This document shows positions 3,187-50,912 of a stretch of 64,000 bases of DNA, in pieces. Position 1 is the stretch's first letter. Each line of letters begins with the position of its first letter. The position numbers were made by a program, and so were the translations under genes. Where the stretch lies: assembly GCA_041661385.1 (NCBI GenBank), contig JBAZUP010000003.1, forward strand, positions 36,299 through 100,298, written 5' to 3'. A model generated the notes under the pieces. It worked only from the letters and a program-made list of their open reading frames with translations, had not been told where the DNA came from and did not search any database. Origin of the DNA: Patescibacteria group bacterium. Lineage in GTDB: Bacteria > Patescibacteriota > Patescibacteriia > Magasanikbacterales > GWA2-37-8.

Positions 3187-3253
3187 TACTAACAAAAAAC
3201 AATTCTTCCTTTCAGAAGTTACCACCGTCACGTATTAATAAACTTCCCCGTCG

Positions 3254-3475
3254 CTCCCTTCGCGCATTACGCAAGGTAAATACTCGCACTAGACGATAAA
3301 TGTGCGAACAGCAAAGCGGCGTGTTTGAGTGAAACGAGTTTGCCGTTTGCGGCACATCGCCATAGAACGAGTTTACCTGAAGTACGGCGCTTGACTTTTT
3401 TGCTTGCTTTTTGTGTCAAGACAAAAAGCAAGACGCGCCAGCGAAAAACGCACTCGTTCCATCTAACAAAAACAA
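3254..3475 (+). repeat. structured ~220-bp intergenic repeat, copy 1 of 3 (GC-enriched, nested hairpins)
   Basis: ~85-90% identical to 15838-16050 and 17263-17474; 12-bp perfect hairpin CTTGCTTTTTGT/ACAAAAAGCAAG. Confidence 0.85.
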
Positions 3476-15824: not shown

Positions 15825-15837
15825 TCACCACTCGCCA

Positions 15838-16050
15838 TCCCCTCCGCGCAATTACGCAAGACAATTACTCGCTCTAGGCGAAAAATGTACGAACAGCAAA
15901 GCGGCGTGTTTGAGTGAAACGAGTTTGCCGTTTGCGGTACATCGCCGTAGAGCGAGTTTGCCTGAAGTACGGCGCTTGACTTTTTTGCTTCCTTTTTGTG
16001 TCAAGACAAAAAGCAAGACGCGAACAGCGGAACACGCACCACGTCCACTG
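15838..16050 (+). repeat. structured intergenic repeat, copy 2 of 3
   Basis: see 3254-3475. Confidence 0.85.
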
Positions 16051-17236: not shown

Positions 17237-17262
17237 TATTCTCCTCGTCGTTCCCCTCCGCG

Positions 17263-17474
17263 CATTACGCAGGGAAACTACTCGCACTAGGCGAAAATTG
17301 TGCGAACAGCAAAGCGGCGTGTTTGAGTGAAACGAGTTTGCCGTTTGCGGCACATCGCCGTAGAGTGAGTTTAACCGGAGTACGGCGCTTGATTTTTTTG
17401 CCTCCTTTTTTTATCAAGAAAAAAAGCAGGACGCGCCAGCGGAAAACGCACTCGTTCCACCTAACGAAAACAAA
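17263..17474 (+). repeat. structured intergenic repeat, copy 3 of 3 (carries compensatory changes)
   Basis: see 3254-3475. Confidence 0.85.
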
Positions 17475-17697
17475 GACTACCAAAAATTCATCGACTATTG
17501 CCAGATACAACTCGACCACTACAGCAACCCATTGGGCAGTCAACCAAGCCGACCAAAAGAGCAAAACAAAGTGTTCCACTTCGATGGCACAAAACTAAAA
17601 CATATTGATTTCACCAAAACAAAATAACTCCTGAAAACCGTTTACCAATAAAACAACGTATACGCCCGCGCAGCGTAACGAGTTTTCACAAAAACAA

Positions 17698-33925: not shown

Positions 33926-34369
33926 CACACCCGCCCAAGCGAGTCAAGCAGCGCGAATTACGCGTTATAGCTTGACTACCCTCTCGCCGGTTTGTTAGCG
34001 TTAATATCATTAAATTTAAAGCACAAAACACTAATGGAAAGAAAAAAATGAATAAAAGCTACAGCGGTTACTTAGCACGTGACAAATATTGTTTTACACA
34101 AGATTTTTCATTCAGAACATACATAAACACTATTGCAAAAAAACGCAATTACAAAAAATAAATTTTCAAGGTAAAGAAAAATGACAGAATTACTCAATTC
34201 TCCAATATTATTCACAGAAAACATATTTATTTCCAGTTTTTTAGTGTTTTCCCTTTCAAATTTCTTTTCAAAAAAGATGAATTAAAAAACACTAAATTAA
34301 TAATATAAGTCATTACGACAAACGTCCTGGATAAGACGTTAAACTTTCCTCTTATATCTTTAATGTTTT

Positions 34370-34650
34370 ACTATATCGGCGCACCGGTTTCCGACTCTTT
34401 GCACTTGTGAGCAAAGAAAAACTATGCCGATAGACATTAAAGCTTTAACACTCGCCCGAGGATCGGAATTGTCCGGTCAGCCGCGCAGGACCAGCGGCCA
34501 GTTATCGGTTGAGTGTTTCGAGCGGACACCTGCCACCCGCTCGCAGCGCATTTACCTTATGCAGATTGCGCCCAACCCTCCGGCTTGATCGACCGGATTG
34601 TGGTTGCCAGATCGCGAAGCGTTGTTTATAAACAGCGCTTCGTTTTTATT
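34370..34650 (+). other. GC-rich (~55-60%) highly structured non-coding element ending in an intrinsic terminator that abuts the RBS of the next gene
   Basis: several hairpins; conserved-loop hairpin GAGCG-GACACCTGCCACC-CGCTC; terminator GAAGCGTTGTTTATAAACAGCGCTTC followed by GTTTTTATT. Confidence 0.5.
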
Positions 34651-34663
34651 ATAAGGAGTTAAA

Positions 34664-34945
34664 ATGAGAACAGCAGAACAAAATTTAGAGTTTCAAACGC
34701 AATTTGCTATCCGAAAAGCTATACGAATAATTGAATTAGGAAGTGAAATACTCAGCGTAACAAACAAACCGCGTAAACTCGCAAACCGATTAGCAGTAGC
34801 CAGAGAAAATCTAGCAGAAATGCTTGAATCACTTCAGTTTTGTGAAAATGAAATCAAAGAATTAATTAACAAAGAAAACACTAATAGCGACGGCGTTTAT
34901 TCTGAAGTTATTGAGCATTGTTGTCTGCGAAGTGATTACAACTAA
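34664..34945 (+). CDS. hypothetical protein
   Basis: TAAGGAGTTAAA RBS. Confidence 0.5.
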   Translation: MRTAEQNLEFQTQFAIRKAIRIIELGSEILSVTNKPRKLANRLAVARENLAEMLESLQFCENEIKELINKENTNSDGVYSEVIEHCCLRSDYN

Positions 34946-34961
34946 GTTATATAACTTAGTT
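34940..34961. promoter_or_regulatory. perfect 22-bp palindrome AACTAAGTTATATAACTTAGTT (operator family)
   Basis: upstream of 34979 ORF. Confidence 0.6.
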
Positions 34962-34978
34962 ATGTTTTAGGAGTTCCA

Positions 34979-35209
34979 ATGAAACGAAAATGCTGCCTAC
35001 TAACAAAAAGTCGAACACCTAAAAAAACAGCCGCCAAACAATGCCCGTTTCACATCGAATGTCTAAAAATAAAAAAAGGCGGAACCGGCTGTATATTTGG
35101 AATCAACAACTCAACCACCCGAACATATAACCGCGTTGATTTTAAAACCAACCCAGAGTTAAGCCCACAACAATTTAAGAAAAAAGGCATACACTACGAT
35201 TTGTATTAA
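34979..35209 (+). CDS. small basic Cys-containing protein
   Basis: TTAGGAGTTCC RBS. Confidence 0.45.
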   Translation: MKRKCCLLTKSRTPKKTAAKQCPFHIECLKIKKGGTGCIFGINNSTTRTYNRVDFKTNPELSPQQFKKKGIHYDLY

Positions 35210-35225
35210 CAAAAAAGGAGCTTTG

Positions 35226-35744
35226 ATGTTTACAATCAAAATCAAAGAAACCATCGGCGAAAACTGCATAACCCGAGTTCAAGGCGGCAAAATTTTTAAA
35301 CTTTTAACCTCGCCGAGCCGTTTTCCATACAAAACAACCCTGGACTTCGCCGGTGTCAAAATCATCTCCGCGCCATTTATAAACGCAGCAATCGGCAGAT
35401 TGTTTGAAGTCAATGGAAACACCGAGCCGCATAAAGTCCCGTCATTTGTAAATCTTAGCCATCAAGACGAAACGATGATCAAACACGTTATAGACGGCGC
35501 AAAAGACTATTATACAAAATCCCTATACGAACGCACTCAGCACGACAATATCGTCGCCAACGCAATCCGACATGCAAACGAGTGCTCAACAGAACCAAAT
35601 ACATCGAACGATTTTTGTGACAAGCTAAAATGGCTAACGAACAACCTTAATACACTCAGCTACGACCAGCTTTCCAAAATAAGCAAATTATCAAAATTAA
35701 CGAATATGGAAATTCACAAAAGATTTCCACCTAAACCACAATAA
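35226..35744 (+). CDS. hypothetical protein
   Basis: AAAAGGAGCTTTG RBS. Confidence 0.5.
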   Translation: MFTIKIKETIGENCITRVQGGKIFKLLTSPSRFPYKTTLDFAGVKIISAPFINAAIGRLFEVNGNTEPHKVPSFVNLSHQDETMIKHVIDGAKDYYTKSLYERTQHDNIVANAIRHANECSTEPNTSNDFCDKLKWLTNNLNTLSYDQLSKISKLSKLTNMEIHKRFPPKPQ

Positions 35745-35939
35745 TTCTTTTTAAGGAGTTCCCGTGAATAATAAATATCATCCACCGTAGCGTACCTCCC
35801 TAGTAAACCAATATACAACAAATTATATATTAAACATAAGACTAATAAATCAACGCCTGTGTAAACTCGGCCACACGCCGCACTTTTACCCAGGCGTTTT
35901 ATTTTACTTACTAACTAATAATAGTTAGTAAGCTTTTAT

Positions 35940-36085
35940 GGTCTATTGCCAAGTTTGGAATATCCAAACAATCGTACAGGATTAACGAGGCATTAGTACC
36001 ATTCCGTCGGACACCTGTCACCCGACGCGCCCACCCAAACAGATGTGACCTCTTCTCCACGTTTGTTTGGGTGTTTTTTAATTTT
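35940..36085 (+). ncRNA. candidate small RNA: three hairpins then intrinsic terminator
   Basis: GTTTGGA/TCCAAAC, CGTCGG-ACACCTGTCACC-CGACG, CCCAAACA...TGTTTGGG followed by TGTTTTTTAATTTT; preceded by palindromic promoter motif. Confidence 0.3.
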
Positions 36086-36255
36086 AAAAGCTAATTGCTA
36101 ATTTTCACAATTAGCACAAAACACGCAACAGCAACTACCATCACCGCTTCGACAAATCAAATCCCGTTACACTCTTACGATTTGACATGTCTCTCACGTT
36201 GCTGGCGAGTAATAATCATTAAATTTAGGCTATAAAGAGCCACAGAGGAGAAAAA

Positions 36256-36474
36256 ATGACAATATTTAAGGGACAAAAAGTTGTTAGAAAATCGACCGCA
36301 GCAAAAGTACTACAAGAATGTAACACTTTAAGCTTATTCGATACTACATCAAAATATGCGGTTGCAAACCGTCAAATCTTGAATAGCTTACCGACAAGTA
36401 TTCCAACACTTTTCACTGTTGTTACCGAAGAAAACGGGAACAAAGCCATTCAAGAATATTTCGTAACTAACTAA
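36256..36474 (+). CDS. hypothetical protein
   Basis: AGAGGAGAAAAA RBS. Confidence 0.45.
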   Translation: MTIFKGQKVVRKSTAAKVLQECNTLSLFDTTSKYAVANRQILNSLPTSIPTLFTVVTEENGNKAIQEYFVTN

Positions 36475-37390: not shown

Positions 37391-37427
37391 AACCCAGTAG
37401 CTCCGGCTACAGGGTTTTCTTTGTTTT
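37391..37427 (+). terminator. rho-independent terminator
   Basis: AACCCAGTAGC-TCCG-GCTACAGGGTT followed by TTCTTTGTTTT. Confidence 0.65.
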
Positions 37428-50839: not shown

Positions 50840-50912
50840 AACTACGACAAAATTATGGTCTAAACATAATCACTTACGAAGAAAATATGGTCAACTACGA
50901 CAAAAATATGGT
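50840..50912 (+). repeat. three further iterons downstream of rep
   Basis: AACTACGACAAAATTATGGTC, ACTTACGAAGAAAATATGGTC, AACTACGACAAAAATATGGTT. Confidence 0.75.

Follow-up and report, generated by a model that had tools for sequence, protein, structure and literature searches.

Within a 64,000-nt stretch of DNA deposited under a Patescibacteria label (hereafter the window, by which positions are numbered), we examined a GC-rich, structured, non-coding element, E1, together with a second structured element, E2, which carries a copy of one of the E1 hairpins. Our favored interpretation, to which we assign a probability of roughly 0.4, is that E1 and E2 are two plus-strand leader RNAs that share a factor-binding hairpin, H3, and that control read-through of unusually strong terminators placed before two gene cassettes. 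The observations behind this interpretation are a structure signal, the terminators, a lack of promoter space 5' of the 93-aa gene, a hairpin present twice with compensatory changes, and the plasmid and strand context; from these we infer RNA production, binding of a factor, and regulated read-through.

In this model, E1 (about 34320/34360-34652) and E2 (about 35938-36085) would be transcribed from the plus strand as structured leaders, E1 leading genes for proteins of 93, 76 and 172 aa that are closed off by a double terminator, and E2 leading genes for proteins of 72 and 67 aa together with ssb. The long-stemmed terminator at the end of each leader would halt most transcription. The H3 loop (ACACCUGYCAC), possibly with an adjacent C-rich box, would then be bound by a single trans-acting factor, probably a protein encoded by the plasmid or the host, which would let RNA polymerase read through so that both cassettes are switched together. 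Because no alternative pairing replaces the E1 terminator, we consider modification of the elongation complex, in the style of nut, put, conAn2 or canT, to be likelier than a switch between folds.

E1 stands out first by its composition, as it is the richest in GC of all 281-nt stretches in the window (top 0.03%). The GC content is 52.7% over 34370-34650 and 55.7% over 34441-34650, and individual 100-nt segments reach 66%, with flanks of 30-38% and a window mean of 35.9%. A preliminary description of this DNA, made from the letters alone, had put the figure at 55-60%; it was right to call the element GC-rich, but the value is slightly high for the first 70 nt (44% GC). Folded as plus-strand RNA, E1 has a minimum free energy (MFE) of -110.1 kcal/mol, for a z-score of -5.48 against dinucleotide shuffles, none of which equaled it in 100 trials, and it forms a string of seven to eight stable local helices (Table 1). 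All of the stems listed in the preliminary description are present in the MFE fold, with pair probabilities of 0.8-1.0.

No open reading frame (ORF) had been reported within E1. The element is non-coding, as had been stated, but ORFs of 54, 40 and 49 aa do overlap it, each lacking a Shine-Dalgarno sequence (SD). The 54-aa ORF, the only one of these that was searched, had no Pfam or tblastn match, and with no support from either search we rejected E1 as a coding sequence by way of this ORF. The AT-rich spacer 5' of E1 additionally holds two ORFs with weak SDs, at 34049-34162 (37 aa) and 34182-34286 (34 aa, hydrophobic); if they are real, then E1 would be their 3' untranslated region.

The preliminary description placed a terminator directly against a ribosome-binding site, and we indeed find a genuine plus-strand intrinsic terminator 10 nt 5' of the SD of the 93-aa gene. 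Both E1 and E2 end in a GC-rich stem-loop followed by a U-run on the transcribed strand, the defining features of an intrinsic terminator. In the DNA, the 13-bp stem of E1 is followed by TTTTTATTAT, then by AAGGAG, and then by the start codon. The sole promoter-like match, at 34625-34652, has its -35 box in the terminator loop, its -10 box outside the stem, and its predicted start 3' of the SD. Because there is no promoter space between terminator and SD, the 93-aa gene is reachable only through read-through of the E1 terminator. The layout of E1 is thus supported as a leader/attenuator architecture.

Hairpin H3 is present in two copies that lie approximately 1.5 kb apart in the same orientation, the first of which reads as DNA CGAGCGG-ACACCTGCCAC-CCGCTCG. 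The copies share the 11-nt loop ACACCUGYCAC and the inner three base pairs of the stem (CGG/CCG). The 64 kb contain the 17-mer CGGACACCTGYCACCCG exactly twice, at 34523 and 36008 and in each case on the plus strand; 0.09 occurrences are expected by chance, and 0 of 100 shuffles reached two. The three outer stem pairs differ between the copies, and all three changes are compensatory (G-C to C-G, A-U to G-C, and G-C to U-A); the chance of flanking complementarity in both copies is about 0.001. The recurrence of the hairpin near 36005 with a kept loop and covarying stems, which had been noticed beforehand, is therefore confirmed, and H3 behaves like a recognition hairpin, as had been proposed, with its 11-nt loop conserved on a covarying stem in what are only two copies. 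GCGCCC follows both copies. As read from the sequence, a box, GCGCCCACCC, at 36027-36036, directly after copy 2, resembles the C-rich box GCGCCCAACCC of E1, in a segment that also permits an alternative alignment.

E2, of approximately 145 nt, reaches a z-score of -6.93 when folded as plus-strand RNA and of -3.75 as minus-strand RNA; the corresponding values for E1 are -5.5 and -3.2. Its terminator has a tail with a U6 run (UUUUUU). The genes 3' of E2 encode proteins of 72 aa (start 36256) and 67 aa and are followed by ssb (37050), with a terminator at 37393. With terminators flanking it both upstream and downstream, E2 looks like a promoter-proximal unit of its own. In both E1 and E2, the G.U wobbles of the terminator stem would be A.C mismatches on the minus strand, and the U-runs are present on the plus strand only. 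These wobbles and U-runs are the strongest indications in the sequence that E1 and E2 act as plus-strand RNA. Because the raw folding energies of the E1 body are alike on the two strands, the plus-strand assignment of E1 rests mainly on the terminators and on E2.

If E1 and E2 are transcribed, they might also be stand-alone, trans-acting small RNAs (sRNAs) of about 300 and 140 nt, with the shared C-rich loop as a seed for target mRNAs, such as those with G-rich SDs. Each unit closes with the kind of long-stem terminator that is typical of RNA genes, E2 is isolated between terminators, and the loop and the neighboring boxes are C-rich, with the SD GGAGGUGG of a toxin-like 46-aa ORF at 2244 as the top predicted partner. 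Among targets in the window, however, the best loop-target duplex reached -13.9 kcal/mol, compared to a mean best of -15.7 kcal/mol for shuffled loops, and 81% of the shuffles did at least as well. A multi-domain body of 300 nt is large for a seed-type sRNA, and the E1 terminator must have a role in cis as well, given that no promoter fits in front of the 93-aa gene. We regard the sRNA interpretation as rather unlikely.

The preliminary description had named a riboswitch, an attenuator or a T-box as the architecture of E1. The leader/attenuator part of that proposal holds, in that read-through is needed, whereas the riboswitch and T-box parts do not. A ligand-sensing riboswitch or T-box-like leader that governs the 93-aa operon through its terminator would fit the order of structured leader, terminator and ribosome-binding site. 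Yet Rfam gave no matching family, whether at E<=10 or at the gathering score, and the genes that follow are orphans that carry no metabolic signature; E1 is itself an orphan, whereas riboswitch aptamers are widely conserved. Furthermore, no competing antiterminator helix is predicted: when E1 was folded without the 3' arm of the terminator, or with the C-rich box or the H3 loop blocked, the terminator was intact and no stable competitor arose. With no competing helix in E1, no Rfam match and no homologue, a conserved ligand riboswitch or T-box is unlikely, and we consider this explanation scarcely probable. We also rejected a relay antiterminator model for E1, for which constrained folding gave no support. 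In E2, blocking the C-rich box, which overlaps the 5' arm of the terminator, weakens the terminator by 15-21 kcal/mol.

The surroundings of E1 and E2 are those of a conjugative plasmid of approximately 106 kb, and not of a phage. Because a 105,912-bp contig in ENA has its ends inside the window, the element is probably circular. Genes in the window include Rep3 with iterons, ParA, a CHC2/Toprim primase, a MobA/MobL relaxase and topoisomerase III; the type IV secretion system (T4SS) genes VirB8/9/10/11, VirD4 and TrbC; and SSB, two type II toxin-antitoxin pairs, two DNA methyltransferases, a PcfJ-like gene and an NAD ligase. Nearly all of them are on the plus strand, in a unidirectional array of at least about 90 kb that is headed, some 6 kb before the start of the window, by a divergent repressor of the CI-like helix-turn-helix plus S24 peptidase type, and we count about 10 convincing plus-strand terminators within the window. 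The T4SS genes run on into a secretin-containing cluster beyond the window. A VirB/Trb-type T4SS with a secretin is at odds with the Patescibacteria label of the NCBI metagenome-assembled genome (MAG), which suggests a different (diderm) host or mis-binning.

The strand that is transferred in conjugation can be assigned from the origin of transfer. The minus-strand sequence 5' of the MobA/MobL relaxase gene, GTTTCTTTAGAAACGCGGTATTGCGCCTTCT, matches the RSF1010 inverted repeat plus nick region GTTTCTCGAAGAGAAACCGGTAAGTGCGCCCTCC. In an IncQ1 record the relaxase gene is templated by the RSF1010 oriT strand, the same orientation as found here, and by this homology and orientation we take the minus strand to be the one transferred. 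Because oriT is on the minus strand, everything below about 53.17 kb would constitute the leading region, with E1 and E2 located 17-19 kb from the nick. The genes 3' of E1 and E2, ssb included, are templated by the transferred strand, the same layout as in the F plasmid.

This position raises the possibility that the hairpins act in transferred single-stranded DNA (ssDNA), either as a priming site (a single-strand initiation site or single-strand origin, ssi/sso) for the plasmid's DnaG-like primase or that of the host, or as a promoter of the Frpo kind. The location 5' of leading-region genes, ssb among them, that are templated by the transferred strand is that of Frpo, and the plasmid encodes a CHC2-Zn/Toprim primase whose gene adjoins oriT. 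Under DNA parameters both E1 strands fold well (z-scores of -4.9 for minus and -5.95 for plus). Primases and HUH enzymes read hairpins as a conserved loop on a variable stem, which H3 would suit. Other features do not agree with such a role. The transferred strand is the minus strand, yet the U-runs and the terminator wobbles are specific to the plus strand, and the plus (non-transferred) strand also scores better. E1 consists of many short hairpins rather than one long one; as a control, the Frpo region 5' of the F plasmid ssb folded as one imperfect hairpin of about 310 nt, the z-score being -8.8 for the transferred strand, compared to -5.5 for its complement. Published ssDNA promoters are large stem-loops that reconstitute -35 and -10 boxes (PMC11541004, PMC12672017), and E1 has no -35/-10 pair inside a stem. 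The CS-6 motif (TAGCGW) is absent from either strand of E1 and E2, no PLSDB plasmid has similarity to them, and a three-copy repeat of the same plasmid, described below, suits the role better. In sum, we judge an ssDNA function of E1 and E2 to be quite improbable.

The preliminary description had also named single-strand origins or ssi sites in the manner of Gram-positive plasmids, and this idea was not sustained: the T4SS is of the VirB/Trb type with a secretin, the minus strand is the one transferred whereas the U-runs and wobble pairs of both terminators are plus-strand features, and PLSDB gave no similarity. The comparison with ssoA (of the pT181, pE194 and pLS1 type) that it recommended, made for the CS-6 motif, likewise came out negative, with no TAGCGW in E1 or E2.

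The three-copy repeat, also GC-rich, is found at 3236-3470, 15826-16045 and 17243-17475, and the copies are about 90% identical, each lying just 5' of a gene. It folds as a long imperfect hairpin of approximately 145 nt plus a second hairpin, with six compensatory pairs among the copies. Where only one side of a pair has changed, a G.U pair is kept on the minus (transferred) strand, whereas the plus strand has an A.C break, and the minus strand also has an MFE that is better by some 10 kcal/mol. No match to the repeat was found in Rfam or PLSDB. From its sequence, we consider this repeat, and not E1 or E2, to be the plasmid's best candidate for Frpo-like or priming elements, and a candidate new class.

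We also considered that the H3 copies might be nick or recognition sites of an HUH enzyme that bracket a 1.5-kb mobile cassette, or that the GC-rich block might be a decaying foreign insert. The enzyme could be an IS200/IS605-type transposase, linked to the IscB element of the plasmid, or else the MobA/MobL relaxase. With its GC-rich stem of 7 bp and conserved loop of 11 nt, H3 is similar to the hairpins of rolling-circle origins, and the GCGCCC after each H3 resembles the MOBQ nick core. The plasmid has IscB with its HEARO RNA, and the HEARO scaffold contains GACACCUGC. Against these points, the genuine, RSF1010-like oriT maps to another place and to the opposite strand, the ORFs scanned included no Y1 transposase or Rep_HUH, and the similarity of HEARO to E1 and E2 is at chance level, with no match of the HEARO model in either. 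A decaying insert would not fold with a z-score of -5.5, nor would it keep a covarying paralogous hairpin. Both variants appear very unlikely to us. Two related candidates were rejected in the course of this comparison: E1 and E2 as orphan IscB omega-RNAs, because the HEARO model misses them and their similarity to the plasmid's HEARO is at chance, and E1 and E2 as extra oriT copies on the basis of the GCGCCC box, which was ruled out once the RSF1010-like oriT was found on the other strand.

The IscB element itself is located outside the window, with the T4SS genes on one side and a pilus/secretin cluster on the other; if the window numbering is extended, it lies at about 68.9-70.4 kb. It consists of a match to HEARO, the IscB omega-RNA (145.7 bits, E 2.6e-31, L222:15855-16063), and, directly 3' of it, a 425-aa RRXRR+HNH (IscB-like) gene (L222:16084-17361).

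We searched multiple collections for relatives of E1 and E2. The Rfam covariance scan that had been recommended as a check found no known family matching either element: across the whole window only two tRNAs reached the gathering score, and at E<=10 the region 34200-36300 gave chance matches of at most 19 bits. The HEARO match elsewhere on the same plasmid served as the positive control. E1 and its surroundings had no DNA match by megablast or blastn in phage and plasmid collections, and blastn against PLSDB found no plasmid similar to E1 or E2. Looking for the H3 loop elsewhere, as had also been proposed, returned only what we judge to be chance matches: the exact motif, as a 16/17-mer, occurred 20 times in viral contigs and more than 119 times in GTDB genomes, in GC-rich or coding contexts and with no flanking stem above 3 bp. 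The flanking 93-aa and 172-aa proteins match only themselves among 5.8 billion clusters. In 80 metagenome loci anchored on SSB there was no homologue of E1, E2 or the three-copy repeat, and the sole hairpin-like match there was inside a chromosomal coding region. Relatives of PcfJ, as a route to related loci, were too short or too distant, and neither the core of the three-copy repeat nor the relaxase found anything in viral contigs. Every other assembly of the plasmid matches the window with 100% identity, which leaves no single-nucleotide polymorphisms to compare. E1 is an orphan, of no described family, and its comparative support comes only from the paralogy of E1 and E2.

A separate observation from these searches concerns a 17-mer, CGGACACCTGTCACCCG, which was found in a near-identical context of about 60 nt at three loci (L102, L141 and L202), with no flanking stem; two of the three come from one Planctomycetota MAG. 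This Planctomycetota-linked context is probably an unrelated repeat or the end of an insertion sequence.

Several results weigh against factor-gated leaders. No homologues turned up in the collections searched, and the covariation of the hairpin comes from two sequences. Among the ORFs in the window there was no NusG paralogue and no N-like, ANTAR or CAT-domain protein, and allowing up to two mismatches, boxA (TGCTCTTTAACAA) had 2 sites compared to 3.7 expected, with none near E1 or E2. No promoter above background was found for E1 or E2. Terminator stems of 13 and 16 bp are in the range that resists, or partly resists, conAn in Bacillus subtilis (PMC10325885). Unlike conAn2, E1 lies a long way from where the conjugation genes begin, at a distance of about 18 kb from oriT. 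Finally, the proteins encoded nearby offer little guidance: the AlphaFold2 model of the 93-aa protein is a generic three-helix bundle, for which Foldseek gave no informative fold match, and that of an upstream 121-aa orphan is unusable (pLDDT 40).

A broader proposal is that E1 and E2 represent a new class of paired, hairpin-addressed regulatory RNAs specific to the leading region of a conjugative plasmid, which would be neither ssDNA promoters nor members of the conAn/canT systems of Gram-positive conjugation operons. An RNA-level switch, by antitermination or otherwise, would then time the expression of the establishment genes (ssb and the orphan cassettes) after DNA entry. We think this proposal doubtful, but it bears on a question of consequence. 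Whether an incoming plasmid survives the defenses of its host depends on early expression from its leading region, for which Frpo-type ssDNA promoters have so far been almost the only explanation. If E1 and E2 are real regulatory RNAs, a second, RNA-based layer would gate leading-region cassettes in a lineage that has no cultured or sequenced relatives, and a plasmid that carries E1 and E2 plus the ssDNA-promoter-like three-copy repeat would be a compact system in which to compare both layers. As E1 is a single orphan sequence with an inferred function, the practical impact is modest.

The positions of the parts of E1 and E2 and of their immediate neighbors are collected in Table 1. In the first cassette, the 172-aa protein has a sub-threshold match to DUF4325 (STAS-like), and the second of the two closing hairpins is a copy of a 20-bp palindrome of the plasmid, ACTAACTAA..TTAGTTAGT.

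Table 1. Features of E1, E2 and their surroundings (window positions; P, probability)
Feature	Position	Strand	Details
E1 domain 1	34360-34440	+	80-nt imperfect hairpin; stems 34360-67/34433-40 and 34374-81/34425-32; P 0.91-0.99
E1 stem	34374-81/34425-32	+	MFE
E1 domain 1 inner hairpin	34396-402/34411-17	+	MFE stem; enclosed by 80-nt hairpin
E1 domain 2	34447-34517	+	branched; closing stem AACACUCG/UGAGUGUU; P 0.94-1.00
E1 domain 2 interior	34461-78, 34480-98	+	CCGA/UCGG and these two hairpins
E1 stem	34480-84/34494-98	+	MFE
H3 copy 1	34519-34543	+	CGAGCGG-ACACCUGCCAC-CCGCUCG; 7-bp stem, 11-nt conserved loop; P 0.98
H3 stem	34519-25/34537-43	+	MFE
H4 and H5	34546-34606	+	H4 34546-50/34567-71; H5 34573-83/34593-606; from fold
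C-rich box	34568-34578	+	GCGCCCAACCC; within H4/H5 region
E1 stem	34579-83/34593-97	+	MFE
E1 intrinsic terminator	34614-34652	+	13-bp stem, two G.U wobbles, 4-nt loop, then UUUUUAUUAU; P 0.97
E1 terminator stem	34614-26/34631-43	+	MFE
SD and 93-aa orphan gene	34653-34945	+	SD AAGGAG 34653-58; ATG 34664
76-aa and 172/173-aa genes	34979-35744	+	76-aa product Cys-rich, basic; same cassette as 93-aa gene
Two terminator-like hairpins ending first cassette	35852-35898; 35907-35932	+	first followed by UUUAUUUU
E2 5' domain	35938-36002	+	branched hairpin; from fold
H3 copy 2	36005-36027	+	CGUCGG-ACACCUGUCAC-CCGACG
E2 intrinsic terminator	36032-36085	+	16-bp stem (36032-36073), two wobbles, 10-nt loop, then UUUUUUAAUUUU
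RSF1010-like oriT	53206-53176	-	inverted repeat GTTTC-TTTA-GAAAC, then GCGGTATTGCGCC/TTCT; upstream of MobA/MobL relaxase gene

The palindrome, ACTAASTN(0-10)ASTTAGT, is often nested in a palindrome of about 46 bp and occurs at 13 distinct sites, compared to 0.01 expected (11031, 13307, 34941, 35910, 36479, 38319, 42194, 44088, 44755, 46034, 46742, 47634 and 47854). Most copies overlap with a stop codon, and in 12 of the 13 the next SD and start codon follow at a distance of 14-63 nt; only the copy at 35910, directly 5' of E2, departs from this pattern. A degenerate copy is located 5' of E1, at 34291. The palindrome has a -10-like center and may act either as a global operator/promoter or, in RNA, as an intercistronic hairpin.

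Three other regions of the window are worth recording. The most structured intergenic region is 2052-2396 (z-scores of -8.2 on the plus and -7.1 on the minus strand), which includes a 13-bp terminator at 2060-2088 and the 46-aa ORF (2244-2384, SD GGAGGTGG); its predicted product, with a hydrophobic N-terminus and a basic tail, resembles a small membrane toxin, and the region may be a type I toxin-antitoxin locus. Direct repeats, ACTACGACAAAAWTATGGT, at 50840-50910, just 3' of the Rep3 gene, are likely the iterons of the vegetative origin. The two tRNA genes, at 1186-1271 and 1304-1384 (55.3 and 48.7 bits), have long variable arms.

Among known systems, the nearest functional analogues of E1 and E2 appear to be the antitermination RNAs, conAn2/canT and nut/put. 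conAn2 of pLS20 (260-600 nt; PMC8191782) and canT of Tn916 (about 450 nt; PMC11658703) are multi-hairpin, poorly conserved, cis-acting RNAs placed before terminators. Like them, E1 and E2 are large structured RNAs on the coding strand in intergenic regions of a conjugative element, 5' of intrinsic terminators; they too combine a short GC-rich segment with stem-loops, and in neither family is there sequence conservation between members. They differ in being two tandem units with one common hairpin, in lying in the leading region 17-19 kb from oriT and not at the head of the conjugation operon, and in residing on an element with a Gram-negative-type T4SS on which no ConAn1-like partner was identified. 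Their terminator stems, at 13 and 16 bp, are in the conAn-resisting range (PMC10325885), and antitermination is here only putative.

The nutL/nutR sites of lambda and the putL/putR sites of HK022 offer a parallel for H3, as they also pair two leader hairpins, with a kept loop and slightly different stems, 5' of terminators and with a linear box adjacent. The H3 loop, however, is of 11 nt and is not a GNRA-like pentaloop, there is no boxA consensus near E1 or E2 and no N-like protein was recognized, and the H3 copies are in tandem in one orientation, whereas the nut and put copies are in divergent operons. The binding loops of PyrR and the RAT sites of BglG/SacY likewise repeat a recognition hairpin before successive terminators of one gene cluster, and the first H3 copy precedes a small gene that could encode a regulator. 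Those systems use mutually exclusive folds that overlap the terminator, whereas H3 is 70 nt from the E1 terminator with no alternative fold predicted, and no PyrR, CAT or PRD domain protein was found.

The Frpo and ssi elements of F and ColIb-P9 are GC-rich, structured, non-coding elements of the leading region, 5' of ssb-type genes that are templated by the transferred strand (PMC11541004, PMC12672017), and in this they are like E1 and E2. Frpo, however, forms a single long, imperfect hairpin, with its best fold on the transferred strand, whereas E1 and E2 are chains of short hairpins that end in plus-strand terminators, and there is no sequence similarity between them. By these analogies, E1 and E2 appear to most resemble in kind the antitermination and attenuation leaders of mobile elements, from which they differ in location, tandem layout and host element.

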